In this document: positions 1 to 15,877 of the stretch, piece after piece | How positions within the stretch are numbered: position 1 is the first letter of the stretch | How the letters are laid out: the number at the start of each line of letters is the position of its first letter | From: a virus | Reading direction: 5' to 3' (one strand) | DNA length: 64,000 nt | IMG/VR virus record: IMGVR_UViG_3300037583_000003 | Span: 1 to 64,000 of that record | The notes under the pieces: model-generated | Databases searched by the model: none | What the model was told of the DNA's origin: nothing | The model's input: the letters and a program-made list of their open reading frames with translations, nothing else | Translations under genes and position numbers: made by a program

Positions 1-1307
1 CCCTGATTAAACTTAGGTTGAACTCCAGTAACAAATCTAGTTACCTTATCCCTAGCTGGTCTGATACCTTTATCCTTACTTCCAGGTTTCCTACCAAAAC
101 TAAACCAAGTACCCCTAGTTAGCATCATTTCCTCAAGTACTGGTATGAACCCTCCTTGTTGACCTGATGTCTCTATACCTACAGCTATGGGATTCCACTC
201 TTTAACATAGTCAAACAAGTCCTCTAGATTTCTCTGCATGTCTTGTCTCTTACACTGACCATCTGTGAGTAACCAATCACCATTATTGGATACAGCAAAT
301 ACCCCTATAGTAGAGAAGTCAGCACTCTTTTTAGTACTGTTTGCAAAGTCAGTTACTATATATATGTTGTATAGATGTCTGTTCTTCTTAAGTGCAGTTG
401 GATCAAACCAGTTAATCTCTTCCTTACTAACTAATAGCGTGGTTAGATCTGTTACATTCAGCATGAACTCAGTATAGAAGCTTTGAGTCTTACCAGCTGA
501 CTTGTACTGTCTGAATAGCTTAGACGCATACTTGTAGTCAAACCTATCTGGCCATACACTGTCAAAATCTTCCTCACTACAAGGGAAGTTACTACATAGA
601 GGTATTCTAACTAGGAAGTACTCACCACTGTTCTTTAGCTTATGAAGCAAGTCATCCTCACATAGTGGAGTACCTACATAGATTACTTTATGTCTAGGTA
701 CTAGTGCAGGTAGTGCTGAGTTGAACCAGTTAGTGTCTACTGTGTTTCGTACTGTAGCTGAAGTCATTACCTCGTTACTTAGTACGTCATCTGCCAGTAT
801 TGCAGAAGGCCTATGTCCACTTTTACTCCTTATCCCCCTCCAGTTAACGTTCATACCCCTACCAGCTACTATCATCTCAACACCGTCTGCATTTACAAAC
901 TCTATCTCGTTATCTATCTGCTTAGGTATAGTAATTAACTTACTAAGGAATACACTATTTTTAACCTTAGAGTCCAAGTTCTTGAAGAACGCTTTTACGT
1001 TACCATCTTGGTTAGCTCCTAGGAATACCATAAACGGCACTTTACCGAATCCTGGCCAGTACCCGAGAGCAGCTATGTAGATAACAGCGTACTCTAGTAC
1101 GGTAGACTTACCCATACCCCTTAGACACTCTATTAGCACATACTGGTCTTCTTCCCTACCTGAGAACAGAGCATCGGCTATCCTGTAATGTGCTTCTGGT
1201 GAGGTGTTCTCTTCATTACCTGTAGCCCTTATAAAGGCAATAAACTTTATAGCCTCTTTAGTAGGTATGTACCGTTTAGCTATATCTAGTTCACCTCTTG
1301 TAGTCAT
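1..1307 (-). CDS. terL: Terminase large subunit, N-terminal part (runs off the window edge)
   Basis: Absent from the ORF track because no stop lies in the window. Manual translation from ATG 1307 gives MTTRGELDIAKRYIPTKEAIKFIAFIRATGNEENTSPEAHYRIADALF...IECLRGMGKSTV (Walker A), like the N4 gp68 N-terminus. It has an ATGA overlap with the upstream gene. Confidence 0.9.
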   Translation of the reverse strand, partial: MTTRGELDIAKRYIPTKEAIKFIAFIRATGNEENTSPEAHYRIADALFSGREEDQYVLIECLRGMGKSTVLEYAVIYIAALGYWPGFGKVPFMVFLGANQDGNVKAFFKNLDSKVKNSVFLSKLITIPKQIDNEIEFVNADGVEMIVAGRGMNVNWRGIRSKSGHRPSAILADDVLSNEVMTSATVRNTVDTNWFNSALPALVPRHKVIYVGTPLCEDDLLHKLKNSGEYFLVRIPLCSNFPCSEEDFDSVWPDRFDYKYASKLFRQYKSAGKTQSFYTEFMLNVTDLTTLLVSKEEINWFDPTALKKNRHLYNIYIVTDFANSTKKSADFSTIGVFAVSNNGDWLLTDGQCKRQDMQRNLEDLFDYVKEWNPIAVGIETSGQQGGFIPVLEEMMLTRGTWFSFGRKPGSKDKGIRPARDKVTRFVTGVQPKFNQ

Positions 1308-2189: not shown

Positions 2190-2364
2190 CTGCTAACTCC
2201 TTAATTAATTTACTTCTACGAGTCCTTAACCCTCTAAGGTACTTCATACTACACATCCAGTAAGGTTGATCCATATCTATTTCTATAGCAGCTATTTGCT
2301 CTTCTACGGATAGGTCACTTACATCACTTACCTCTAGTCTTGTCTTCATTAACCAACCTATCAT
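2170..2364 (-). CDS. Hypothetical protein
   Basis: ORF track, tightly packed operon; the real start is probably the internal Met (MKTRLE). Confidence 0.5.
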   Translation of the reverse strand: MIGWLMKTRLEVSDVSDLSVEEQIAAIEIDMDQPYWMCSMKYLRGLRTRRSKLIKELADGSKSG

Positions 2365-2644
2365 ACTTAGTTACTACGTCATCTAGGTCTACATCAAAGA
2401 ACTCAGTAGACCCTCCAAACTTAAACTCAGTCTTGTAACTAAACCCTTTAAGCTCCTTGTGCAATGTAGCTTCTAATCTGTATACGTTATCTACTTTCCT
2501 ATACCGCTTGACATAACATTGAGGGAATATTCTATACTTCTTCCATATACCCACTAGTATCTCAGTAACCCTGTCCTCTACTTTAGATCTACAGGTCACA
2601 CCAACCTTGACAAGGGACTTACCTTCTAGGTTTACTTCCAACAC
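2324..2644 (-). CDS. T5orf172/MUG113-type GIY-YIG-like domain protein
   Basis: Motifs (GILY)VLE...VKVGVT..R...LEATLH...GGSTEFF. The frame stays open upstream of the annotated start. Confidence 0.7.
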   Translation of the reverse strand: MLEVNLEGKSLVKVGVTCRSKVEDRVTEILVGIWKKYRIFPQCYVKRYRKVDNVYRLEATLHKELKGFSYKTEFKFGGSTEFFDVDLDDVVTKYDRLVNEDKTRGK

Positions 2645-2684
2645 ATAAAGTATCCCGCTTTTAACGAGACCTATTGTAGCTATT

Positions 2685-3116
2685 TTAGACTGGATTAGTT
2701 AACTCCTTAATCCTAGCGTTAAGTACCTTATAGTAACCAACCATGTGTGTGTACTGCCAATTAAGCAACTCCCAAGATCGGTTACTTAAGTGCACTGGCT
2801 TACCATTAGTTAGGTAATTTTTTAGTTCGAGTTCTAAAACCCCTAGGTCGCTAAGTTCTGCATTTAATTTTTGTACAACAAGGTCAACTGTACTGGTAAC
2901 TTCAGAGTAACCATTGTCAAACTGCTCCTTTGGTGACCATGAAATGTAACCTTCATGCCTTGAGTCGTTAGGCTTACCGCCATCTACGTACTCTACTAGG
3001 TAACCTTCATCATCACCATTTTCATCCTCTGGCAACTCCCATCCCCTGTACTCATTGTAGTCAAGCCTATTCATAGGGTTTGCTTTTACTTCTTTGTGAC
3101 ATTTGAATATCTTCAT
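2685..3116 (-). CDS. Two-domain phage protein: GYLVEY...YISWSPK domain plus crAss001_48-like helical domain
   Basis: N-terminus PMNRLDYNEYRGW...EGYLVEYVDGGKPN...GYISWSPKEQF; C-terminus LL.WQ..HM.GY.KVL.ARI. Confidence 0.6.
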   Translation of the reverse strand: MKIFKCHKEVKANPMNRLDYNEYRGWELPEDENGDDEGYLVEYVDGGKPNDSRHEGYISWSPKEQFDNGYSEVTSTVDLVVQKLNAELSDLGVLELELKNYLTNGKPVHLSNRSWELLNWQYTHMVGYYKVLNARIKELTNPV

Positions 3117-3137
3117 ATACTGTTACTTCCTCATTAT

Positions 3138-3254
3138 TTAATCTTCAATACCGTCATCTAGTAGTTCAGCTACTTCTGCTATATCGTCTGTACCATACAG
3201 CTCTTCAAGCTCTTCTACTGTCCGACCACCATCATTTTTGTTTATTACTTTCAT
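3138..3254 (-). CDS. Small acidic peptide (38 aa)
   Basis: Manual ORF MKVINKNDGGRTVEELEELYGTDDIAEVAELLDDGIED. Confidence 0.35.
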   Translation of the reverse strand: MKVINKNDGGRTVEELEELYGTDDIAEVAELLDDGIED

Positions 3255-3306
3255 GTATACCACCAGCTTATTGAGTCTAGTATATTACATGACCTTACCA
3301 ACCAAT

Positions 3307-3564
3307 TCAACCTGACCCTAGTAGTTTAGCTACACTTGACACCCTGTTACTAGATACTCCGTCTACTGTGACCTTACATCCTTCAGCTAACTGCTCTACC
3401 ATTAGCGGTTGCCTAATAGCTATGTAAACGCAGTAACCCACTAGCCTCGGACTGCATCCCCATGAGTCAGCTGCTGATTGCTTACTAACTCCCAGCTTAC
3501 ACATATCACCATAAGCATTTACAGCTCTCTGTGAGGTAGTTAGTCCGTCTCTACTGGTTTGCAT
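3307..3564 (-). CDS. Stand-alone HTH domain of the ParB-like paralog family
   Basis: LTTSQRAV...AADSWGCSPRLV...QPLMVEQLAEGCKVTV aligns with the C-half of 5783..6496 (VAKDWGCTPRLL...EPGMFEALHAGKNATI). Confidence 0.65.
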   Translation of the reverse strand: MQTSRDGLTTSQRAVNAYGDMCKLGVSKQSAADSWGCSPRLVGYCVYIAIRQPLMVEQLAEGCKVTVDGVSSNRVSSVAKLLGSG

Positions 3565-3886
3565 TCTTTACAGCCCTAACTACAACTCGTACATCATCCA
3601 TTTCAATAACCTTACTATTAGGATTCATAGCCATTGTAGTTGAACCATTAGCTTGTAACTCTTTAGCAACCACTGGGCTATGCTTCCATAAGTACCTAGC
3701 ATTCCTTAGTAGGTTATAACCTAAGCTAGACACCTCTAACGTCTCCTTATTAGTGAGACCAGCTTCTTTCTGGTACATTATCGCATCTAATGCCATCTGT
3801 GATTCGGTTCTCGGTTGGGAACAGCTACCGTATAAGTTTACGAAGAACTCAACAACTACTTTAAATAATATTTTAAGTTTCAACAT
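3551..3886 (-). CDS. HTH-domain protein of the ParB-like paralog family
   Basis: TESQMALDA...GLTNKE...LLRNARYLWKHSPVVAKELQANG shows the same pattern as the other paralogs. Confidence 0.55.
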   Translation of the reverse strand: MLKLKILFKVVVEFFVNLYGSCSQPRTESQMALDAIMYQKEAGLTNKETLEVSSLGYNLLRNARYLWKHSPVVAKELQANGSTTMAMNPNSKVIEMDDVRVVVRAVKNANQ

Positions 3887-3962
3887 CTAAATCTCCTATT
3901 GTTAATTAGTGGGCATTATTGCATAATACTGACACCTAATCAACTACCAAGGAAACCTTTTT

Positions 3963-4535
3963 ATGGGTTACATAACAGAACACAAACGTTTAGCTAAACC
4001 GAAGAACGCTAACACCTTCTATAGGAAGTTTATATCAGAGGACATACTAGATCTACTAGAGAAGTCCTCATCAGTAGAAGCTGACGATGGGTCATTTACC
4101 TTTAACCTACCTCTTGATATAGTACCAGCTAGCCGTCCAAGACTAGGTAGAGGGATTGCCTATACAGCTGAACCTTACAACAGTTTTAAGAAAGTACTAT
4201 CAGAGTTCTTTGCTTCAACACTAGGTGATTACCTATTAACCTCATTCCATGACGTACCACTTAGGCTGGAGCTAGTAGTTGGATACAAGATACCCAAGTC
4301 CTATAGCAAGAAGAAGAGAGCTGACCTACTAGGACAATACAAGATAACTACACCAGATTGCGATAACGTAGTTAAGTGTGTAGAAGATGCACTAGAGCAA
4401 TCGGGTATAATAGGTAATGACTCAACTATAGCTATAGTCACAGTAACTAAGCTATGGGCTGAGGATTACTCATCTACTATTAAAGTAAACAAACTACAAC
4501 GCTTACCTACCACTGGAGACACTTATGACCATTAA
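3963..4535 (+). CDS. rusA: RusA-family Holliday junction resolvase
   Basis: PASRPR...Y, TPDCDNVVKCVEDAL..SGIIGNDS.I....K.W: RusA catalytic Asp/Lys pattern. Confidence 0.85.
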   Translation: MGYITEHKRLAKPKNANTFYRKFISEDILDLLEKSSSVEADDGSFTFNLPLDIVPASRPRLGRGIAYTAEPYNSFKKVLSEFFASTLGDYLLTSFHDVPLRLELVVGYKIPKSYSKKKRADLLGQYKITTPDCDNVVKCVEDALEQSGIIGNDSTIAIVTVTKLWAEDYSSTIKVNKLQRLPTTGDTYDH

Positions 4536-5127
4536 CAGGATCAACTACAGGACAGTCACTAAAAAAGATCTACCTTTCAGTTCTATACTCAAGTTTATAA
4601 ACGATAACTATGTGGTAGCTAGATCTGAGTGGCATAGTACCTGTATGCAACTACGTCTAGGCTCTAACGGTGGATTAGAACTCCTATCCGCTTCTGGTCA
4701 CTACTTGAAGAACTACGCCATACCAAGTGCTGATTGTTTAGCTACTGACTGGTTAGTACTATCAGGTGGTCCAAAAAACCCTCCTAGGGTTAGTATAGCA
4801 GTTAGGTCAAACGAATACCTACCACCTAACAAGTATGGAGGTCATCAAGATCAGATGGCTCAGTACCTAGCTATTATCACTAAAGCTAAGTCTAAAGGTA
4901 TAGAACCTCACATACTTGCAAAGAGAGCCGGTCTTAATGTACCTCTTATGAAGAGACTAGTAAAACTAATCGCACAGTGCCCTGAGATCGTTATGTTCCT
5001 TGAACTAGGTCTTAGTGTAACTATAGAGAGAGCATCAGACCTGGTTAGAACTACTACCAGATCTATCCCTCAACTATGTGCTGTAAACGCTAATAACAAC
5101 GCTTACTACAAGGCTGGTAAGGGTTAG
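4525..5127 (+). CDS. DUF2829/Tad2-like domain fused to a ParB-family HTH domain
   Basis: N-terminus F..IL......VARSEW...M.L...PSADCLATDWLV fits the DUF2829/Tad2 consensus. C-terminus QDQMA...LAKRAGLN..LMKRL..L...CPEIV.FLELGLSVTI fits the local HTH family. Confidence 0.55.
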   Translation: MTINRINYRTVTKKDLPFSSILKFINDNYVVARSEWHSTCMQLRLGSNGGLELLSASGHYLKNYAIPSADCLATDWLVLSGGPKNPPRVSIAVRSNEYLPPNKYGGHQDQMAQYLAIITKAKSKGIEPHILAKRAGLNVPLMKRLVKLIAQCPEIVMFLELGLSVTIERASDLVRTTTRSIPQLCAVNANNNAYYKAGKG

Positions 5128-5690
5128 CTACTCTTCCTATCGCGAGCAGTTACTGAGTTCACGTTGAGTTCATTGTTACTCTTAGCTATACGAAGTAACG
5201 TACCTATCCTATGAGTAGTAACTGTAATACCCTTAGTTACATCTTGGATAGTTACTTCCTTGCCATTGAACAGCATGTCCTCTACCTCTGGTACTATAGC
5301 TAACAACTCCTCTAGTGCTCTTAGGGAGTTTAGCTTAACACCAAACTCTTTACACACGGCTGGTCTGGATAACCTTGAGTTGTTATGCTTAATATACGCC
5401 ATAACTAGTTGTTGCTCTGGTAACACATCCCTTCTTACATTAAGTGCCTCTACAACCATAGCTACATCTTCTAGTGGTGTACTGCTTGGTTGTACCTCTA
5501 TTTTTAACTCTAGACCTAGCTCTATGCAAGCTCTTTGCCTAGCTCGACCATCTACTATCTCACCTCTCCATACCCTAACTGGTAGTTGCTGACCTACTGC
5601 GTCTATACTCCTTACAAGAGCTTCGTATTCTGACGTTGTTAGTTTAGGTTGGTTATTAGCTAACTGGTGTACTTTGTATGTTACTGTCAT
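5124..5690 (-). CDS. ParB/Srx-like N-terminal domain plus HTH protein
   Basis: L..SI...GQ..PV..W.GEIVDGRARQRAC..LG...LNVRRD. Confidence 0.8.
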   Translation of the reverse strand: MTVTYKVHQLANNQPKLTTSEYEALVRSIDAVGQQLPVRVWRGEIVDGRARQRACIELGLELKIEVQPSSTPLEDVAMVVEALNVRRDVLPEQQLVMAYIKHNNSRLSRPAVCKEFGVKLNSLRALEELLAIVPEVEDMLFNGKEVTIQDVTKGITVTTHRIGTLLRIAKSNNELNVNSVTARDRKSS

Positions 5691-5782
5691 TTTGTTGTTC
5701 CTATCTATTGCTGGTTACTGTGGTGTTAGTTTGTAAACAAGCTATGTCATACGTCTACTTGTTTACGATTGGTTGTCATTTA

Positions 5783-6496
5783 CTAGGAGAATATACCTTC
5801 TAGCTCTATACTAGTCCTATAGTTGTACAGTTCTACTAGTTTCACGTACAACTCTGGACTTCCTGTAGAGCCAGCTATGAGCTTAATGAACTCAGCCCTT
5901 AGCGTCACATCATCTATACACTTACTGTAGTCTATCGTGCTTGTGTCCTTCTTTAGCTTCCTGTTACTTACAGCTATCTTCAACAACTTATTTACCATAC
6001 TAGTAGCTACAACAACTCCAGTACGGTAGTCCATTATAGTAGCGTTCTTACCTGCATGAAGTGCTTCAAACATACCAGGCTCTAGTTTCATTAGTGCTTT
6101 GAAGCTAGTTAGTAGTCTAGGAGTACATCCCCAGTCCTTAGCTACAACTGCATTACTATAACCGTGACCTAAACCATGCTTATACGCCACAGCAACCACC
6201 TGAGTAGTCTTAAGGTTACGTCTAGTGTTGTAACTCTTAACTTCAGCTTTAGCCTGTTCTAACGAAAGCTCACTACCATCTGGATTCTTTAGGTTAGTTA
6301 CCTTAAGTTCTCTACCTAGTTCAATACATGACTTCTGTCTACACCTGCCATCTATAATCTCACCTTTCCACAGTAGAGCTGATTGCTTCTGTCCATTCTT
6401 CTCTATGTCCCTAGTCAAGGCTTCTTGCTCTGCTGGTCCAGCTAGAGGTACTAGGTTAGCTAGGTCGTTTATTGCGTATATCTTAGTTTTACTCAT
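5783..6496 (-). CDS. ParB/Srx-like N-terminal domain plus HTH protein
   Basis: ALTRDIEKNGQ...WKGEIIDGRCRQKSC...YNTRRNL. Confidence 0.8.
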   Translation of the reverse strand: MSKTKIYAINDLANLVPLAGPAEQEALTRDIEKNGQKQSALLWKGEIIDGRCRQKSCIELGRELKVTNLKNPDGSELSLEQAKAEVKSYNTRRNLKTTQVVAVAYKHGLGHGYSNAVVAKDWGCTPRLLTSFKALMKLEPGMFEALHAGKNATIMDYRTGVVVATSMVNKLLKIAVSNRKLKKDTSTIDYSKCIDDVTLRAEFIKLIAGSTGSPELYVKLVELYNYRTSIELEGIFS

Positions 6497-6959
6497 TGTT
6501 CTTCTTCTTGTTGGTTAACTGTTTCGCTTTATTGCTAAACTTGTGACTATCTTACACTAGATTACACTAGAATCAACTACTAATTTCACTTTTATTTGTT
6601 ACATTTTTACCTATACCCTAGCTACTGCCTAGTTTACTAGCATTAAGGTTTTTCACATTACATCGGTGTAAACACTATTCGAGCTAGTCGACTTCCAGTT
6701 CAAATAACCTAAAATCTAGAGTTCAAGAATCAGATTCTACGACTTTACTCTGACATAAACCAAAGCCAAATCTCTATCCAGACCTACAACAAAACCAACC
6801 CCTTCTTTTATCCATATATATACAATGTAAACCACACAATTTACAAGGTTATTATTTTAGCTGCTAGACCTACACCTATAGCTAGTTTGTGTGATCTATT
6901 AAAACCAATATGGGAGACCTCTTCTTTTTTAAAATTCTAGTTTTTTTCCATCGCTTCCA

Positions 6960-7113
6960 CTGGCATCCTGTGGTGTGATGGAGGTTACTTCTTCGTCAGT
7001 CGATGATTGTGTCAGCGAGATTCATTCCGTTCCGCTACGCTACACTCCAATCTCTTACGTGCCAGCAATCTTCTTCCTCCTAGAACCACCTCCAACAAAC
7101 CACAGTCAACCAG
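6960..7113. other. Long imperfect inverted repeat (hairpin), candidate terminus/origin/ssDNA promoter element
   Basis: Nested arms CTGG/CCAG, CTGTGGT/ACCACAG, TGGAGGT/ACCTCCA, GATTG/CAATC, GAGATT/AATCTC. The minus-strand apex is GC-GTA-GC. Confidence 0.7.
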
Positions 7114-7117
7114 CTCG

Positions 7118-7188
7118 CTAAGTAAAGGGTAGTTGGGGTGATAACTCCACTGCGTTCCGTTATCAATAACCATCCAGCCTTACTAGTC
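7118..7188. other. Second imperfect hairpin
   Basis: AGTAA.GG/CCTTACT, GGT/ACC, GATAAC/GTTATC. The minus-strand apex is AC-GCA-GT. Confidence 0.6.
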
Positions 7189-7212
7189 CAACCGTATCAA
7201 CCTGACCAAAGG

Positions 7213-7377
7213 AAAGTAGATCCTATATCAACAAACGCAAGCAAGGTAACAGAACTTAAGGGTTAGAATTTATTCTACGGATGGGTGGTTGAACAAGGGA
7301 GGTACAAGCGGAGGGGTCTTCCCCGTAGCTTTAACGAACCGCAGTAGACCAGCTAGACGTGTAATAAATTATATAAC
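7213..7377 (+). promoter_or_regulatory. Repeated structured element, copy A (candidate early/vRNAP promoter region)
   Basis: Shares ordered blocks AAAGTAG.TCCT, AGCAAGGT, TTAGAATT, GGGTGGTT, AGC.GAGGG..CTT..CCCG, AATTATA.AAC with 12263..12430. Confidence 0.55.
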
Positions 7378-8051
7378 CGTAGGTCTGTCTATAACTAGAT
7401 TTAAAACCTAGTTATATATGCGGAGTAACTTTAGTTTGTAACTTAGCTATACAACAACTACCCTCTCACTAGCACACCACTAGCCAGTCTAATAACTACT
7501 TAGTCCCTAGTAGTAGACTTAAAGGAGTTAACCCCGTGGTGAGGTTTACAGGAGCTATCGGTCACTACTACTTATGTATATATGTATGACTCTAGTTTGC
7601 AATCTAGCTAGGTTTCGAGTCTAGTTTATATATGCGGTATACAGTGGTACATGAGGTTATACGAGGTTATACGAGATCTAGTGTACATTGTATAGATGAT
7701 TCTACTATAGTGGTCTGTATGGGGGTGTATGGAGTTATTAGGGATATTAGAGTTATTAGTGTTATTGGGGTATAGGGATATAGGGATATAGTGGTAAAAT
7801 TCATGTAGGGAAATTATATAAATTTGTAGCGATGCAATACTACCTTCTGGGACTTACAACCTACAACACACCCCCCCTATCCACTTTATCTAGTCAAGTT
7901 TATCCAGCTACAAAAACCTACCTCGCTAGTTGTATCTCCTACATCCCATCTCTTACTACTGGATCACTTATTGTCCAAACGGTAGGATCAATTAAGATCC
8001 CTATGAACCAACTTTGGTTCGACAACAGTGCATTGCACAAAGGGACATATC

Positions 8052-8426
8052 ATGTCTAAGTTATCTAAGTACGTTAGCGTTACATTCAGAACTCAATCAG
8101 GTACAGGTATTCGTGGTTCAGTATTAAAAGGTTTAGACACTCCGTCTGAACCATTCGTACTATCTTTCAGTGGATTTGGTGAGCCTAACGAGAAAGGATT
8201 CATCTCTGCATTCTTTCGTAGTGACTCTGTACCTGGAGTTATTGTAGCTATGTTGGACACTCACCTTGAGTTACTAATCAAGGAAGGTAACGTAGTCCAG
8301 TTGGGTGATGAGCTACTATTGCAAGTTAACCCACCTAGAGGTTATAGTTTAGAGGAGTTTGACTCTGGTACTAAGCCAACAGTTGAGTTTGTCAAAGAAC
8401 TCAAGTCATCTAAAGGGAGTAAATAG
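8052..8426 (+). CDS. Early hypothetical protein
   Basis: ORF track 8028..8426; the ATG at 8052 follows an AAGGGA SD. First plus-strand gene after the non-coding region. Confidence 0.75.
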   Translation: MSKLSKYVSVTFRTQSGTGIRGSVLKGLDTPSEPFVLSFSGFGEPNEKGFISAFFRSDSVPGVIVAMLDTHLELLIKEGNVVQLGDELLLQVNPPRGYSLEEFDSGTKPTVEFVKELKSSKGSK

Positions 8427-8428
8427 CC

Positions 8429-8809
8429 ATGGCTGTTGTTAAAGAACGTGGTACTTTCGGTAAGGTTTGGGGAGCAATTGGTTCTTCAGCTCAGATCGTT
8501 GAAGCAGTTTCCCAGTCAGCAGTGATGGGAACTATGGGGGTTAGATCTTCAGCTCTAGCGTATGCTGTTAACTCAGCTACCGATACAGCTTCAGAACTTG
8601 GCCTAGTTGGATTAACCACAGAGGAAGCGTTGGCTGTGGTTGAAGTACTAACCATTCAGGTTACCAGTCCGAACAAGCTAAAAAGTGAGGAGTTGTTCAG
8701 TAAAGCAATGGCAAAGCAAGCTGAACTAGCTAAGGTTGAAACCGAGTTAGCTAAAGCTGAATCAGTTAAAGCTAAAGCTGAAGCTGAACTAGCTAAAGGT
8801 GGTGAGTAA
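8429..8809 (+). CDS. Early hypothetical protein with C-terminal AELAK coiled-coil repeats
   Basis: ORF track, GGAG SD, AELAK/TELAK repeats. Confidence 0.75.
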   Translation: MAVVKERGTFGKVWGAIGSSAQIVEAVSQSAVMGTMGVRSSALAYAVNSATDTASELGLVGLTTEEALAVVEVLTIQVTSPNKLKSEELFSKAMAKQAELAKVETELAKAESVKAKAEAELAKGGE

Positions 8810-8892
8810 TGAGAACTTACTACTTCATCCGTTACTGTTATGTAACAACCTCAATCAAGCTCAAGTCTTGGTTTAAGTAAACTAATAACTCT

Positions 8893-8919
8893 AGCCCTAG
8901 TGGTTAGGGTTTATTTTTT
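8893..8919 (+). terminator. Intrinsic terminator
   Basis: AGCCCTAG-TGG-TTAGGGTT followed by TATTTTTT. Confidence 0.75.
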
Positions 8920-9063
8920 ACTCACACTAGGATCTACACTCACACCTACACTCACACTTAAAGACAGTATCTAAGTCTGGCTTCTTCCATCTCCCTCTTC
9001 TCCTTTAATTAGTCTCGCTTTCTCCTAATGGTAGGTTAGGTTAGGTTTACTGAGGGTTACTCC

Positions 9064-9828
9064 TCATCTAGCTTGCTTAATAGCCTTATCCAGTCTAGCT
9101 TTAGTATTACTTAACAGTAGATCTCTAGACTCATCGTTATTTATCTTATCCACTAACAACTCAAAGTAATTAGCTATTGATACTGACTTACCTCTAGTGG
9201 TATCACAGAACAACTCTTCACCTGCTAGGCTACTAAGCTGACCTAGGTAGTCTTTAGCATACACAACTTCAGAAGACTCTTTAGGTACAAACTTAAGGTT
9301 TCTTTCTAGTACTGATAGTATCGTATACACCTTCTTAGACTTAACCATAACTTCTTTCTCCATATCATATACTTCTATAACCTTCTCTTCAAAGAAGTAA
9401 TCTAGGTACTTAGGTTCTAGTTTAACTATCTTATGTAGTCTAGTTAAAGCTCTACCACTGCAACCATAGTCAGCTACCATTGCTGCATTAGACTTACCAC
9501 TAGCTACTTGTTCCTTATAGAAGCTAGCTAATTGAGACTCCACACTTAGATTCCTTCTAGTATTCAGTGCTCTTACCTTATCCTTGACCTCATCTGGAGT
9601 TAGTGACTCAGATAGGTGATCAATACGGTTTTCAGGTATCTCCATATTAAGAGCTACACAAGCCATTTGTCTACATCTGCCATCTACGATCTTACCTTTC
9701 CATAGAACGATAGGTACTTCAAGACCACCTGATCTTTCAATACTTAGCTTTAGTGTTTCTTGTTCTTGTGGAGCTGGCATTCTAACTATGCTTGCAAATG
9801 GATGAATTTCGTATGTTCTGATTGTCAT
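9064..9828 (-). CDS. ParB/Srx-like N-terminal domain plus HTH protein
   Basis: HPFA...LKLSIERSGG...PIVLWKGKIVDGRCRQMAC...LNTRRNL...YGCSGRAL. Confidence 0.8.
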   Translation of the reverse strand: MTIRTYEIHPFASIVRMPAPQEQETLKLSIERSGGLEVPIVLWKGKIVDGRCRQMACVALNMEIPENRIDHLSESLTPDEVKDKVRALNTRRNLSVESQLASFYKEQVASGKSNAAMVADYGCSGRALTRLHKIVKLEPKYLDYFFEEKVIEVYDMEKEVMVKSKKVYTILSVLERNLKFVPKESSEVVYAKDYLGQLSSLAGEELFCDTTRGKSVSIANYFELLVDKINNDESRDLLLSNTKARLDKAIKQAR

Positions 9829-10452
9829 TTTGGTGTCCTTAATTAGTTGGGGTTAACATTGCAGCTAATATCAGATAATATTCCTCTATTTAAGCTGTGT
9901 TTAACAGGTGAATATTGTAGCATAATTTTGCCGTATTTTGCCGTAAATTAGAGAATATACCTCACCAGCCCACTTAAATGGTCATTTTGCCGCGCGGCAC
10001 AACGAGGTATTTGGAGTGATAAATTTAGACAAAAAAGTACCGAATTTACCACTAAATTTAATCCCCTTAATTAGTTACCTTTATCTTTGGCAAAATTGTG
10101 GAATCATTCTCATTTAGAAAAGGCTATTTGTAACCTTTTTCAAAAAGCTACATGTAACCTTTTTGAGCTACTCTTGGGTACTAATTCAGGATAGGTATAA
10201 AAGTATACATATATAGGTCTCTAAGGAAATAGCCTTTTTGTATTAATACCACAATAAACAGGCAGTTTAAATTCCCAAAATATCCAAAATAAATCGCACT
10301 ATTTTGGTGAATTCATCCAATTTTCCCACTACTAGTAATTTCAACTAGATTCTAACTAGAATCCCATAATTAACCTTTTAACAACTCTATTACTCTAGGA
10401 AAATTAACCTACTCAAAATCCAAACAAAACCTTGACTGCACCAAACAAACAC

Positions 10453-10515
10453 AAAATACCTATAAAATACCTATAAAATACCTATAAAATACCTATAAAA
10501 TACCTATAAATACCT
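10453..10515 (+). repeat. Tandem repeat AAAATACCTAT x5 plus one partial copy
   Basis: Five perfect 11-bp units at 10453-10507, then AAATACCT. Confidence 0.95.
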
Positions 10516-10532
10516 TACAAATGGAGTACTAA

Positions 10533-10781
10533 ATGTTACTAATAAAAGCACTTAATCAAATTAAAGACACCTTGAGTGTACTAACAACAGCAATTTGGAT
10601 TGTTCTAGAAGTACTCTTAGTTAAACCCGTAATTAAACCCATAATTAAGTTTCTTATTGAGTTTCTCATGGGTGTTGTAGAAGCTATTAGGGAATATAAA
10701 GGTGAGCTAGTAATACTTTGTGCAATAGCCTTTCTAGTATTCTTAGTTGTGTTTGTATTCTCACTGATACCCTGCTCTTAA
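10533..10781 (+). CDS. Small membrane protein (paralog of 10812)
   Basis: Hydrophobic helices; LNQIKD.L......IW..L....VKP shared with 10812. Confidence 0.7.
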   Translation: MLLIKALNQIKDTLSVLTTAIWIVLEVLLVKPVIKPIIKFLIEFLMGVVEAIREYKGELVILCAIAFLVFLVVFVFSLIPCS

Positions 10782-10811
10782 CCTTTAGTCTTTACCTTCT
10801 AGGAAACCCTA

Positions 10812-11048
10812 ATGAAAATATTAAACCAAATTAAAGACATTCTACTAGTCCCTGTACTCATAATATGGTTCATACTTAAAATAACCATAGTAAAACCTAT
10901 AAGTAGACTACCTAAGTACATTGGTGGATGGCATGATCTTATATGGGTAGCAATTATAACGTTAGCTATATTAGTTTTTCTTATAGATACTTATTATGAC
11001 TATAACAAAGAGTCCACCGAACAAGTAACCCAAGAGGTAACAAAATGA
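10812..11048 (+). CDS. Small membrane protein (paralog of 10533)
   Basis: Same shared motif and hydrophobic helices as 10533. Confidence 0.7.
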   Translation: MKILNQIKDILLVPVLIIWFILKITIVKPISRLPKYIGGWHDLIWVAIITLAILVFLIDTYYDYNKESTEQVTQEVTK

Positions 11049-11734
11049 AGTCTGAACAATTTAGTAAAATACTTAACAACAGTGTACTATTTGTATTATG
11101 TGTAGTAGTAGCACTTGTAGCTTTTATACTGGTATACGCAGCGGTATATAAGATAGTAGAACATTACACAAAACCATCCCTAACAGAGTTCTTCCAAGAG
11201 ATAGTAGAAGATGAAGAGCCAGTACTCTTAGACCTAGCCTTAGAACGAATACAGATACACAACAAAGCACTATTACTAGCTAACAGTACCACCTATGATA
11301 AGCTAGTTGAACTCGTATACCATGAGTGTAGATCTACCACTTGCAGTCCATACGAACAAACCTTGATATTAGAGGTTGCCTACAATAGAACCTCAAGAGG
11401 TCATTTAGGTGCTGATTCAGTAGTTTCAACTATCAATAAACCTTACCAATTTAGTTACCTTAATAATGTACCTAACAACTCTATGTCACCTCAGCCAACC
11501 ACCCTAGGAGACTACAAGTCATTAGTAGCTATACAGTCATTAGTAGCTAGTGTTATGTCCTCCTATAACTACAACAACGAAGGAGTAAACAAGTATGAGT
11601 TAACCAGTACTGGTGCAATTATGTACTACAACCCTGATAAAGTAACTACACCACCTAACTGGGTAGATCCTAAGTGCCTAATAGATACTGGAAATACCTT
11701 ACATAAATTCTACACATGCTACAAACTCAAGTAA
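11045..11734 (+). CDS. Membrane-anchored SleB-like cell wall hydrolase (Hydrolase_2)
   Basis: N-terminal TM; VYHECR, VAYNR, PYQFS, GAIMYYNP, P.W, HKFY motifs. Confidence 0.8.
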   Translation: MKSEQFSKILNNSVLFVLCVVVALVAFILVYAAVYKIVEHYTKPSLTEFFQEIVEDEEPVLLDLALERIQIHNKALLLANSTTYDKLVELVYHECRSTTCSPYEQTLILEVAYNRTSRGHLGADSVVSTINKPYQFSYLNNVPNNSMSPQPTTLGDYKSLVAIQSLVASVMSSYNYNNEGVNKYELTSTGAIMYYNPDKVTTPPNWVDPKCLIDTGNTLHKFYTCYKLK

Positions 11735-11741
11735 CCAAGGA

Positions 11742-12251
11742 ATGACAATGAAACAAGTATTAAAACTGACGAAAGAAGAACTACAGACCTTACTGGGTGG
11801 CACACCAGTAGACTCTAACAGTGTAACCGTAGAGTTGCAGAAACCTAAATGGAGTGTAAAGAGTAGTACCGTATTCGTTTTCGATAGATACGGGGTACAC
11901 AGGATAGGAACACCTACTAAGGGTATGTATGACGTTAGGGCAATAGACTGTAGAGAGACTTACGATGAAGCCTTACTCCTAAAGAAACAAGTTGATGATT
12001 ACCAGACGTTACTGAACTTCGTCTACCACAACGACATAGACGAGCAAGGTAATAGATGGGTAGCAGATTGGGATAACGAGTTACAGAAGAAGTACTATGT
12101 ACTCTTTAACTCAAGTAGGGCAGAAAACCGCACTTGGTCTAATAATTACCAGTATACGGCAGGAAAACTAACAACCTACATGTCTAAAGAGTGTGCAGAC
12201 AAGTTAGCTACCGTACTTAACTCTAGAGAACTTAAACTAACCCTCAGCTAG
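11742..12251 (+). CDS. W.(P/A)DW-family hypothetical protein (paralog of the 24371-26368 array)
   Basis: D.DEQG..WVADWDN..QKKYYV...YMSKE.A.KL...LN. Confidence 0.65.
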   Translation: MTMKQVLKLTKEELQTLLGGTPVDSNSVTVELQKPKWSVKSSTVFVFDRYGVHRIGTPTKGMYDVRAIDCRETYDEALLLKKQVDDYQTLLNFVYHNDIDEQGNRWVADWDNELQKKYYVLFNSSRAENRTWSNNYQYTAGKLTTYMSKECADKLATVLNSRELKLTLS

Positions 12252-12262
12252 TCAGCCTATAG

Positions 12263-12430
12263 CAAAGTAGTTCCTCAAACAATCACAAAAGCAAGGTCAG
12301 GACTGAAGTTTAGAATTCTAAGGGTGGTTATGTGTACTTCTGTAGGAGATTGTTATTAGCTGAGGGACTTGTCCCGATGGTAATCAACAGTTGACGAAGA
12401 ATACGCATATCTATCCGTGAATTATACAAC
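12263..12430 (+). promoter_or_regulatory. Repeated structured element, copy B (candidate early/vRNAP promoter region)
   Basis: Homologous to 7213..7377. Core GAGGGAC-TT-GTCCCGA in an extended imperfect stem, upstream of the RNAP II gene cluster. Confidence 0.55.
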
Positions 12431-12471
12431 TTTAGGAACTGTTAATTAAACTCACAACAATAGGCTTTAAA

Positions 12472-12699
12472 ATGAAACTATTAAGTAAAGTTAAAACTAT
12501 ACTCCATAACTTCTCTGACAACATGATAGCAGCTCAAGAATTAGTTAGAGACGCTAGTATCTTAGAAGCAGCAGAGCAAGCAGCTATAGCTAAAAAGTTA
12601 GAATACACTTCAACATTAAATGAACTGACTACGGAAGAACTAGAGTTTGTAGCAAACCATCTTAAACAGTATGACAAAAAAGGAGAACAAAATGGTTAA
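12472..12699 (+). CDS. Hypothetical protein
   Basis: ORF track, operon context. Confidence 0.65.
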   Translation: MKLLSKVKTILHNFSDNMIAAQELVRDASILEAAEQAAIAKKLEYTSTLNELTTEELEFVANHLKQYDKKGEQNG

Positions 12700-13300: not shown

Positions 13301-13948
13301 ATGACTACACTATCTATTATGGAACAACTAACTATCGCTCAAAACAACGCTAAGAAAGTAAGAGAGGATGCTTTAGCAACAGTCAAAGCTAAGGCACAAC
13401 TAAGAACGCTGTCTGTAGAGAGCATTGAGAAGCAAGTGGAGATTGAGCTGCACGAGGATACTAGTAACGCACTAGAAGCGATGTTAACTGTATGCAAAGA
13501 AGTAGTGGAGAATAACCCATTACCTAACAAAGAGGGTGGTGGCAATAGGGAGTTTAGGGTTGGCCACTTCTACGGCCTAGGTTCTCACTTGCAAGTACTA
13601 CTAGGTATGCTTAACGGTATCCAGTACTCTGCTGCTATACATAAAGAGAAGATGCTTACCGAGTTAGGCCTAACGTCTTCATTAGTAGAAAACACTCTAC
13701 TTATGGCTGGAACACTAGATTACTTTAGTGAGACAGTTGGAGAAATCAGTATTGGTTACCCACTAGATGTTAACGGCTTAGAAGCATACCTCACTATGAT
13801 CGAGTCTACATTAGACATCAACCTTAACCTTAACCAACTAAACAGCACAGTGGTAGCTTCACGGGAGTCTAAAGCAACTGCTACAGCTAAACGACTAGAA
13901 CTAGAGTTCATCAATACAGACTCTAATGCAAGATTCGTAATTACCTAG
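13301..13948 (+). CDS. Hypothetical protein upstream of RNAP II
   Basis: ORF track, SD present. Confidence 0.7.
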   Translation: MTTLSIMEQLTIAQNNAKKVREDALATVKAKAQLRTLSVESIEKQVEIELHEDTSNALEAMLTVCKEVVENNPLPNKEGGGNREFRVGHFYGLGSHLQVLLGMLNGIQYSAAIHKEKMLTELGLTSSLVENTLLMAGTLDYFSETVGEISIGYPLDVNGLEAYLTMIESTLDINLNLNQLNSTVVASRESKATATAKRLELEFINTDSNARFVIT

Positions 13949-13991
13949 TCAGTAACAAACTAAGTTCTCAGTACACCTTAGTATAAATAAA

Positions 13992-14780
13992 GTGTACTCC
14001 AAACAACTACAGGTACAGGCTATGTTAGATACAAGAAGTAACCTACTAGAAGGTAACTTAGAATTACCTATGCAGCAAGAACTACTAAAGCTACTAGGGG
14101 AAAGTACTTTAGAACCACTAGAACGTATGTGGAATGCTCTATGGTCTAACTACCTCAAAGGCAAAAAAACTATCAACTTAACATACTGGATCGAGGAGTT
14201 CCCATGTACCGCAAGGTTCAATGGGGCACTACGGTCACTGACTAACAAAGGATGGATAGTTACACAAGCATTACCAGCTAGGAACTGGTCAGACGCTATA
14301 CTGTGTGGGTCTAAGTTACTAGAGTTTGTTTCAGTACAGGAACTAGTTACCATTAGAGCTACTAAGAAATTCAACAAATATCTACCTATATTCGATAAAG
14401 CCATTGAGCCTAATCTAGCTAAGGTTAACGGCAAAGTAGTTAAAAATGGTTTAGTAAGAGAAGGCTTCGTTAAGTCAAGTAACACTCAGTATTACTTTGA
14501 TACAGCGTACCTCTCTAAGTACGAGGAAGCAATAGTAGCTAATGTAACTAAAGGTATGTCTAAGTGTAGAAAAGAGTACCCTAACATGACCTCAGATGAG
14601 GCTAGCTACGATGCAGTAGCAGAGGGAGTAGTTAAACACATCGTTGGTAGTCCTGAGATATACACATTAGGTAAAAGCTACCTCGACTCAAGAGGCAGAG
14701 CAATACACGAAGGACTGTCCAAGGTGTGTAACCCAATAGGGTTTAAGGACTTTCGAGCACTACTAACAATACCAATCTAA
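13992..14780 (+). CDS. N4-like RNA polymerase II, subunit 1
   Basis: C-terminal YLDSRGRA (T7-family DxRGR motif), followed by subunit 2. Confidence 0.85.
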   Translation: MYSKQLQVQAMLDTRSNLLEGNLELPMQQELLKLLGESTLEPLERMWNALWSNYLKGKKTINLTYWIEEFPCTARFNGALRSLTNKGWIVTQALPARNWSDAILCGSKLLEFVSVQELVTIRATKKFNKYLPIFDKAIEPNLAKVNGKVVKNGLVREGFVKSSNTQYYFDTAYLSKYEEAIVANVTKGMSKCRKEYPNMTSDEASYDAVAEGVVKHIVGSPEIYTLGKSYLDSRGRAIHEGLSKVCNPIGFKDFRALLTIPI

Positions 14781-14791
14781 GAGGAGTTATT

Positions 14792-15877
14792 ATGGAACGT
14801 TTAGCCAAAGATACTGATAAAAGAGAGATATACCTATTCATAGCAGAACTAAATGGGTACAAGTCTGGAACAGAGCAAGGTAAAGTAGATTTCGGTCTAC
14901 AGTGTCATATAGAGCGTAAGCTACATAACCTAGACCTATCATTAGAAGAGGACAGATCAGAACTCAACGAGAATATCTGGTTAGAACGCCTATACGATGA
15001 GTTAGACAACTACGCTATCGCAAAACTGAGTGGCCTACCATTCACTTGGACTGTACCGATCGAGTTAGACATGTCAGCGTCTATACTAGGCATCATTGGT
15101 ACTCTTCTAGGTGATGAACGACTCTTAACTATGACTAACATGCACGGTACGGAGTTAGTTGATCCTTGGTACATTGAGGGAGTTCCGAAGAGTCTAGTCA
15201 AAGCATCCGCTATGCAACAAATCTATGGTTCATCAAGATCTACCAAAGACATATGGGATACAGAGTGTAAAAATAGCTCACTAAGTTATACGTCTGAGAT
15301 GTTAGCTACTTTCAATAGGGAAATGACTAGCGGGGCATTAGGCCTAGCTATACAGTTTAAGAACTTTATCCTAGGTAACGTAGTAACTAAGGAGTCTATG
15401 GATGTTACTATCGCTGAGGAAACTTTCACAGTTAAGTGTAACAGGTTTAAAAACGTAGGTGATTACACAACTACCTATGATATATTTGATACCACTTCTG
15501 CTCGTATAAGACGTATCCACCATACTAAAACAAGAAAGGAAGCTGACCTTAACTCATTCACTAGATTTTGGGTAACTTGCCTTATACACAATCTAGACTC
15601 ACAAGTTATGAATAACGTAATAGGCAAGACAGTAGACAAGTATGACTTTGCAATAGACATCCATGATGCTGTAGTAACAACACCTTCAGCAGCAGTAGAT
15701 GTAAAAACCTGGTTTGCTGAAGAGATAGATAGCATCTATGAGAACAGAAAGTCCATACTAGCTAACTTCTTTAACTCTATAGGTATAACCAGTAGAGCTA
15801 AGGCAGACTGGGATAGATTGCAATCAAACATAGTCCCAGTTAGTAATTTCAAGTGTAGACTTACTGTACTAAAATAG
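14792..15877 (+). CDS. N4-like RNA polymerase II, subunit 2
   Basis: PIELDMSAS (motif A), K...M...YGS (motif B), IHNLDS and IHDA (motif C). Confidence 0.9.
   Translation: MERLAKDTDKREIYLFIAELNGYKSGTEQGKVDFGLQCHIERKLHNLDLSLEEDRSELNENIWLERLYDELDNYAIAKLSGLPFTWTVPIELDMSASILGIIGTLLGDERLLTMTNMHGTELVDPWYIEGVPKSLVKASAMQQIYGSSRSTKDIWDTECKNSSLSYTSEMLATFNREMTSGALGLAIQFKNFILGNVVTKESMDVTIAEETFTVKCNRFKNVGDYTTTYDIFDTTSARIRRIHHTKTRKEADLNSFTRFWVTCLIHNLDSQVMNNVIGKTVDKYDFAIDIHDAVVTTPSAAVDVKTWFAEEIDSIYENRKSILANFFNSIGITSRAKADWDRLQSNIVPVSNFKCRLTVLK

Follow-up and report, generated by a model that had tools for sequence, protein, structure and literature searches.

A cluster of ParB-like genes at the genome junction

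We analysed a family of six ParB-like genes in a 64,000-nucleotide stretch of viral DNA (hereafter, the window), which represents the first 64 kb of the 93,182-bp IMG/VR viral contig IMGVR_UViG_3300037583_000003 (93% complete according to CheckV). The source is an uncultured marine phage, an AD45-P1-like distant relative of N4. The six genes, named here after their first coordinate, lie between the terminase-side minus-strand operon, which reaches to 3886, and the point at which the first plus-strand genes begin (10533). All six open reading frames (ORFs) listed in a preliminary description of this DNA are present at the coordinates given there and have plausible starts. Along the window, o3307 and o3551 (minus strand) are followed by a RusA gene (3963-4535) and o4525 (both plus strand), o5124 and o5783 (minus strand), a non-coding stretch of 1.5 kb that separates the o5783 start from the 8028 operon (6497-8027), two plus-strand orphan genes (8028-8809), o9064 (minus strand) and a 0.7-kb AT-rich non-coding junction of ~30% GC that extends to the first plus-strand gene (9829-10532). 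The analyses presented below make it very probable that the six are DNA-binding paralogs of the ParB superfamily and derive from a lineage-specific expansion.

Three of the genes encode full-length proteins, in which an N-terminal domain (N-domain) is followed by a helix-turn-helix (HTH) module. o5783 (5783-6496, minus strand; 237 amino acids, aa) comprises the N-domain, an HTH with a β-hairpin and a conserved C-terminal helical tail, o5124 (5124-5690, minus strand; 188 aa), in tandem downstream of o5783, consists of N-domain and HTH without the tail, and o9064 (9064-9828, minus strand; 254 aa) carries a divergent C-terminal extension behind both domains. The three proteins are 30-36% identical across ~180 residues (BLASTP E 1e-26 to 1e-34), and the motifs by which they had been recognised, (I/V)(V/I)DGRxRQxxC and NxRR(N/D), are found in each of them. 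A helical C-terminal tail is present in two of the three copies, and only that of o5783, the most ortholog-like copy (35-43% identity to the orthologs of related phages), clearly matches the family tail (Ctail hidden Markov model, HMM, E 6e-7). A six-frame scan of positions 2600-10600, in which stops were read through, detected three N-domains and six HTH modules; scanning open frames of at least 40 residues in the whole 93-kb contig returned the same three and six and none elsewhere.

The full-length proteins combine a ParB-superfamily N-domain with a ParB-type HTH

The AlphaFold2 (AF2) model of o5783 (predicted local distance difference test, pLDDT, 82) matched Noc, Spo0J, ParB and KorB in Foldseek searches at E ~1e-4 and probability 1.00. 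Residues 3-94 superimposed best on M. xanthus ParB (7bnk; VIA Z 10.7, root-mean-square deviation 1.9 Å over 84 residues), followed by Noc (7ng0; Z 10.2) and C. crescentus ParB (7bm8; Z 9.8), with deviations of 1.9-2.2 Å over 84 residues across the ParB and Noc N-domains, while sulfiredoxin (Srx) reached Z 5-7 only. In searches of PDB sequences with a 50-member family profile, Noc was recovered at E 5e-6 with an alignment spanning N-domain and HTH, and the alignments to Noc and Spo0J continued through the HTH to residue ~150; an 11-sequence profile (A2) gave no match, so the 50-sequence profile was required. Structure and profile thus agree with the preliminary assignment of a ParB/Srx-superfamily N-domain and place it nearest to the ParB-CTPase proteins, and the profile alignment, the HMM searches and the model likewise identify the shared C-terminal segment as a ParB-type HTH, which in the o5783 model continues into a β-hairpin and one further helix. 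A sulfiredoxin-like catalytic cysteine was considered and rejected, as the cysteine of DGRCR lies one position off the Srx cysteine and is an alanine in o5124.

Further matches were scattered. The nearest Atlas clusters of o5783 are viral and contain PF02195 in 64-84% of their members, o5124 matched ParB-like PHROGs (E 5e-5 to 1e-4) and phrog_21315 (E 5e-10), and one of the 50 homologs each was matched by PF17762 (E 6e-5) and by PF18763, ddrB-ParB (E 0.0036). Compared with Pfam, NCBIfam and PHROGs, none of the six proteins scored above curated cut-offs, the weak ParB-like PHROG matches being all that was obtained. The KorB DNA-binding domain (1r71) aligned weakly to the o5783 model (Z 4.1). 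Several observations speak against the ParB assignment: PF02195, the Pfam ParB_N model, matched neither the three proteins nor the genome nor the 50 homologs; TIGR00180 reached 15 bits (cut-off 58), and NCBIfam models stayed under threshold; the isolated HTH module found nothing significant in the PDB by Foldseek, the best hits (E 0.22) being winged-helix repressors of the DtxR/MarR type; and the KorB DNA-binding domain appeared in that search at rank 30. Because the Pfam ParB_N model does not catch this family, domain-based surveys would miss it.

Across 50 family members, D49, G50 and R53 never vary, and conservation is at least 90% at R51, R92 and R93. HMMER aligned the G-x-x-R motif of the family to GERR of Noc. 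Relative to Box II (GERR), the family has G-R-C-R, in which the glycine and the last arginine are kept and the catalytic glutamate and the first arginine are replaced; Box III (ENLQR) corresponds to N-T-R-R, with the asparagine and arginine retained; and Box I could not be aligned, as the HMMER alignment begins after that region. The pocket arginines are thus retained, and the residues used by ParB for cytidine triphosphate (CTP) hydrolysis are not. Since Box I and the catalytic glutamate are missing, a canonical ParB CTPase cycle is unlikely, and the CTP-gated clamp that had been invoked for these proteins does not follow from their N-domains. ParB folds are known to bind ATP, GTP or CTP, or to work without the residues for nucleoside triphosphate (NTP) binding (PMC13229309; bioRxiv 10.1101/2025.10.10.680097).

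Three shorter members carry the same HTH

The remaining genes are shorter or differently built. o3307 (3307-3564, minus strand; 85 aa) starts at the position of Box III and stops after the last helix of the module. o3551 (3551-3886, minus strand; 111 aa), the first gene of the terminase-side operon, has a 26-residue hydrophobic N-terminal leader. o4525 (4525-5127, plus strand; 200 aa) has an HTH module at residues ~118-187 (DNA 4876-5085) behind residues 1-100 of unassigned type. We scored these ORFs with an HMM of the HTH segment built from 47 homologs and zero window sequences, using 1000 shuffles of each ORF as control. o3307 scored 50.9 bits (best shuffle, 5.0), o3551 31.3 bits (10.5) and o4525 18.6 bits (3.2), and in no case did any of the 1000 shuffles reach the score. 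Alignment with the family profile by hhalign gave E 9e-12, 5e-5 and 2e-3, respectively, and o4525 matched o5124 in BLASTP at E 5e-5. Residues 100-200 of o4525 were modelled by AF2 with pLDDT 89 and show the same order of secondary structure as residues 97-183 of o5783; this C-terminal model depends on the family alignment. HMM scores, hhalign and scans therefore support the original reading of o3307 and o3551 as HTH alone and of o4525 as carrying the HTH in its C-terminus, and the profile alignment and structure prediction proposed as a check show that the C-terminal segments align as a common HTH, with which the o4525 model agrees.

The nearest Atlas clusters of o4525 are annotated as 'ParB HTH domain' (score 0.86), which we regard as a lead only. 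Its N-terminus gave a Tad2-like match below threshold (E 0.032; 15 bits, cut-off 25). A GGAG Shine-Dalgarno sequence precedes the start at 4525, which is why we favour the 200-aa form over the 160-aa form of public collections, and o3551 is preceded by AGGAG.

It is possible, if somewhat unlikely, that o3307, o3551 and perhaps o4525 no longer function and are what remains of duplicates that have decayed. Searches of viral contigs recovered no close homolog of o3307 or o4525, nor did one of o4525 turn up among 5.8 billion proteins; apart from these genes, just two short forms of the HTH family were found, both on contigs of less than 2 kb that may be fragments; and the ribosome-binding site of o3307 is weak. 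However, the ORFs are uninterrupted and their ends fall exactly on domain boundaries, a six-frame scan of 2600-10600 detected no decayed N-domain beside o3307, o3551 or o4525, the hallmark HTH positions are retained, the Shine-Dalgarno sequences of o3551 and o4525 are good, and clusters of stand-alone 'ParB HTH' proteins exist in the Atlas. In relatives, the single ortholog occupies the slot of o3551; here, the two HTH-only genes have taken over this ancestral place immediately upstream of the terminase-side operon. The products of o3307, o3551 and o4525 are domain-clean derivatives, which may still bind DNA while lacking the self-association or nucleotide function of the N-domain. Between the six modules the recognition helix varies strongly, which makes different targets more likely than competition for one site and leaves the earlier idea that HTH-only forms act as competitors unsupported.

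A conserved single-copy gene was expanded in this lineage

An exhaustive HMMER search of metagenomes yielded 3,727 family representatives at E≤1e-10, of which 89 reached E≤1e-30. In ~20 related viral contigs, one copy is located at the strand switch, where it heads an operon in the order ParB-like, T5orf172, gp69-like and TerL, and is divergent from homologs of the window genes 13301-15877. AD45-P1 gp028 (YP_008125999, 'ParB N-terminal domain-containing protein'), to which o9064 is 26% identical over 192 aligned aa (E 3e-10), occupies the same operon position. The gene is single-copy in four of the five whole related contigs, the remaining one, of 113 kb, carrying two, and the ortholog is conserved in position and slow-evolving across phages whose TerL proteins are just 25-67% identical. 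Neither megablast with positions 3000-10600 nor tblastn with o5783 matched any of 50,697 phage records. The survey of related N4-like genomes that had been proposed thus identifies the gene as part of the conserved core of this phage clade, present once and placed ahead of the terminase operon, and this context, together with the expansion in one lineage, is what the preliminary description missed. Given the single ortholog in ~20 relatives, the six-member set represents a lineage-specific, fast-diverging expansion.

In a quick maximum-likelihood tree of the three full-length window copies and the orthologs, the window copies formed one group (SH-aLRT 92) nested within the clade that the closest relatives form, and their branches measured 1.6-2.2 compared to 0.1-0.5 for the orthologs. 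This pattern fits copies that arose by duplication within this lineage and then diverged rapidly. A point against relying on it is that the grouping joins long branches, for which the tool warns of a possible long-branch attraction artefact.

In the 113-kb contig (L016), the ParB-like ortholog is directly followed by a gene (10741-11529, plus strand) whose product joins a GIY-YIG nuclease (Pfam E 8e-5) to the family HTH (family HMM, E 1e-12). The fusion resembles the design of I-TevI, a nuclease with a borrowed DNA-binding domain, and on this basis the HTH appears to act as a portable DNA-binding module.

With respect to partner genes, the preliminary description had seen no ParA, integrase or methyltransferase in the window, and this holds for the whole 93-kb contig. 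ParA (PF13614, PF01656) is absent from it in searches whose positive controls worked in 14 of 14 genomes, and neither an integrase (PF00589) nor an N6/N4 methyltransferase (PF01555), fused or free, was detected there. The N-termini of these proteins do not contain the LG(R/K)GL ParA-binding motif. TET/JBP gave no match in a search that lacked a positive control.

Candidate binding sites in the non-coding DNA

Upstream of o9064, TTTTGCCG occurs four times, once within an 18-bp near-palindrome. The half-site ATTTTGCC is present in six copies in the 64-kb window, four of which fall inside 172 bp (9925-10096, no strand), whereas 0.88 copies per 64 kb are expected and none of 100 shuffles reached six. 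The four clustered copies comprise two tandem 10-bp units, one near-palindrome (TTTTGCCGC/GCGGCACAA, 9985-10002; 18 bp with one mismatch) and one inverted copy, and the candidate cluster lies 97-270 bp upstream of o9064, adjoining a promoter-like site; scans for sigma-70 promoters and terminators showed no excess over shuffled sequence. The repeat-rich non-coding DNA next to the genes, proposed earlier as their target, accordingly holds plausible candidate sites in the form of this cluster.

A second candidate operator is a perfect 10-bp tandem repeat of two copies, TTACACTAGA (6552-6571, no strand; 100% match in TRF), positioned 56-75 bp upstream of the o5783 start. Since this non-coding DNA has many short tandem repeats, others being found at 7653-7675 and 7728-7791 of the 6497-8027 stretch, this one constitutes weak evidence. 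At the far side of the junction, an almost perfect 11-bp array of AAAATACCTAT (5.8 copies, 10453-10515) stops 18 bp before gene 10533; its helical-repeat spacing suggests an iteron, an UP-element or a protein-binding array. Rfam gave no match within 6400-12600, the non-coding stretches showed no blastn similarity to the genome or to relatives at E≤1e-3 and are not conserved, and a second copy of the 7213-7377 element at 12263-12430 was not reproduced at the sequence level.

In the relatives, an 8-mer occurring at least three times, counted in both orientations, was found within the 250 bp upstream of the ortholog in eight of 21 loci (seven of 20 distinct loci, since L017 and L025 are near-duplicates), compared to typically ~2-10% of background windows under the same criterion and up to 17% in one locus. 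The repeated motif is different in each phage, which suggests that such repeats might be operators co-evolving with their proteins. The evidence is weak, since mostly coding windows served as the background and the non-coding DNA here abounds in short repeats; this counts against the operator interpretation and makes the sites candidates only.

Possible functions of the paralogs

The expansion concerns one ParB-superfamily protein kept by AD45-P1-like and marine N4-like podophages at the boundary between the early and the terminase-side (late) genes. The most probable reading, to which we give about an even chance, is that the six proteins are site-specific DNA-binding regulators of this junction region, with a mechanism that we infer as follows. 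The proteins would bind short phage-specific repeats in the junction DNA, such as the TTTTGCCG sites upstream of o9064 and TTACACTAGA upstream of o5783, and, once bound, could regulate their own promoters and those nearby, or the local organisation of the DNA, in analogy to the ParA-less KorB, VirB and BisD. After duplication, the copies would have diverged fast, most of all in the recognition helix, and now probably read different sites as a result of sub- or neo-functionalisation.

The conserved linkage to the terminase operon fits a role in packaging equally well, which is a point against regulation as the function. In such a role, which we consider unlikely, the protein would serve as an accessory of packaging or of the genome ends that marks or processes the concatemer junction or the terminal repeats for the terminase, and it may work with the neighbouring T5orf172 (GIY-YIG-related) protein or use its ParB-fold domain as a nickase. 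The order of ParB-like, T5orf172, gp69-like and TerL genes is kept in most related loci, in every case the gene adjoins the non-coding junction, where the termini would be expected from the example of N4, and ParB-fold domains with nicking or DNase activity are on record (PMC5512222). Nevertheless, the gene is divergent from TerL and outside its operon in the distant relatives L017, L018 and L025, spacers of 4-7 kb occur in L013 and L014, and the invariant residues (D49, G50 and R53) include no acidic or histidine residues of nuclease type. Moreover, the gp69-like protein is the more obvious candidate for a small terminase, and one packaging site is hard to square with three diverged copies.

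Quite unlikely, in our view, is that the extra copies are conflict or selfish genes, either mobile in the manner of homing endonucleases or anti-defence (host-takeover) nucleases or NTPases of the ParB fold, which spread in a variable end region. Several diverged paralogs on long branches in one genome, their location in a variable, insertion-rich stretch next to RusA and orphan genes, and the fusion of the same HTH to a GIY-YIG nuclease in L016 are compatible with this, and phage ParB-fold proteins have been linked to conflict (PMC5512222; bioRxiv 10.1101/2025.10.10.680097). Unlike sporadic homing genes, however, the ortholog is slow-evolving and fixed in position, and no nuclease motif was identified; the proteins were not scanned against PADLOC.

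The preliminary description had seen in the family one DNA-binding module combined with interchangeable nucleotide-sensing inputs. This is not supported by the composition of the set: one N-domain is common to three copies and missing from two, and o4525 alone has a different N-terminus, whose role as an alternative sensor depends on the Tad2-like match below threshold. We regard it as very doubtful that all six form one network on the terminal or junction DNA, in which full-length NTP-gated clamps would occupy distinct sites and the HTH-only proteins and the o4525 fusion, with a head resembling small-molecule binders, would occupy or cap those sites, timing the early-to-late switch or protecting the ends. 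If true, this would be a ParA-free multi-paralog ParB system, undescribed for any lytic phage. Plasmid-like partition of a carrier-state or pseudolysogenic genome, with a host ParA or without ParA, for which the ParB-type architecture and the clustered repeats as a possible centromere would be suited, is extremely improbable, as the contig has no ParA or integrase, the N-termini do not contain the LG(R/K)GL motif, a replication-initiator gene was not noticed and the genome plan is N4-like lytic.

Comparison with known ParB-fold systems

Site-specific regulation by the six paralogs would be in line with KorB (RK2), VirB (Shigella), BisD (ICEclc) and Noc, all of which share an N-terminal ParB-fold domain followed by an HTH. 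They likewise have no dedicated ParA, and the palindromic or repeated sites near promoters find a candidate counterpart here. By analogy with them, the phage proteins might bind the junction repeats and thereby regulate the junction promoters or organise the DNA. Unlike these proteins, the phage family lacks Box I, has GRCR instead of GERR in Box II, carries a β-hairpin after the HTH, is shorter (188-254 aa) and has been multiplied into six paralogous pieces in a lytic N4-like phage. AD45-P1 gp028 sits in the same slot upstream of a T5orf172/GIY-YIG-like gene, a gp69-like gene and TerL. In contrast to the single copy there, three full and three truncated copies are distributed over 6.5 kb here, separated in places by RusA, orphan genes and non-coding DNA (2.2 kb).

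Phage ParB_N-methyltransferase fusions and 5mYOX-activating ParBs are, like this family, phage-encoded ParB folds without ParA, and the Atlas structure neighbours of o5783 include ParB_N-N6_N4_Mtase fusions (TM 0.60-0.67). In contrast to those fusions, no methyltransferase is fused or present in this genome, and the HTH is the constant element here, whereas the ParBs associated with 5mYOX have none (PMC13229309). ParB-fold proteins are now described as NTP switches whose versatile roles extend far outside chromosome segregation (bioRxiv 10.1101/2025.10.10.680097).

The family represents a positionally conserved core gene of a widespread marine N4-like phage group. It is real and statistically solid, and its expansion is unusual compared to the relatives. 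The proteins represent a variant of a kind already known, with a putative function. To our knowledge, phage ParB versions with an HTH and without ParA are essentially unstudied. With full-length, tail-less and HTH-only proteins as well as an HTH behind another head, the six-member set provides a natural series for what the N-domain adds, and the family supplies concrete candidate DNA sites. Should the proteins turn out to perform mere autoregulation, the result would be a tidy annotation and no new principle.

Phage relationship, contig ends and neighbouring genes

The contig TerL is 52.6% identical to TerL of the Alteromonas podophages vB_AmaP_AD45-P1 to P4 and ~39% identical to that of classical N4-like Pseudomonas phages, and the contig carries split ORFs of the size of a virion RNA polymerase (1304 and 2442 aa). 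Because of these two features, the label of an N4-like lytic phage given in the preliminary description is right; a split virion RNA polymerase is typical of the AD45 group (PMC3821669).

The contig opens inside TerL (window 1-1307; 435 aa are present compared to 520 aa in AD45-P1), and its other end (G000:C1:92431-93182) holds genes that come after TerL in relatives, which indicates a near-closed circular permutation cut in TerL. The break is therefore within TerL and neither at the paralog cluster nor at physical termini. In N4, the genome ends are located at the early/late junction, and by this analogy the position of the paralog cluster matches the place where N4 has its ends. AD45-P1 was rejected as a guide to the physical ends, since its RefSeq record (NC_021532.1; L026, L027) begins and stops inside coding sequences flagged as partial. 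For the same reason its reported 437-bp 'terminal repeats' do not fix the termini, and they may be an assembly overlap rather than physical ends.

Several genes around the paralogs could be assigned. The RusA-type Holliday-junction resolvase (3963-4535, plus strand; Pfam E 2e-16) is encoded in the middle of the paralog cluster on the opposite strand, and the start of o4525 overlaps it translationally. A T5orf172/MUG113-domain protein (2324-2644, minus strand; Pfam E 2e-10) belongs to a conserved four-gene block, as in most related loci the T5orf172 gene sits between the ParB-like gene and the gp69-like/TerL pair. Between it and the HTH-only genes, a protein encoded at 2685-3116 (minus strand) matches phrog_872 with its N-terminal half (E 5e-26) and contains a crAss001_48-related domain in its C-terminal half (PF21825, E 3e-7). 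Finally, the orphan gene 8429-8809 contains a 21-nt tandem repeat of 3.9 copies (8718-8798) coding for an (A/E)LAKAE-type heptad-like repeat, which probably forms a coiled-coil tail.

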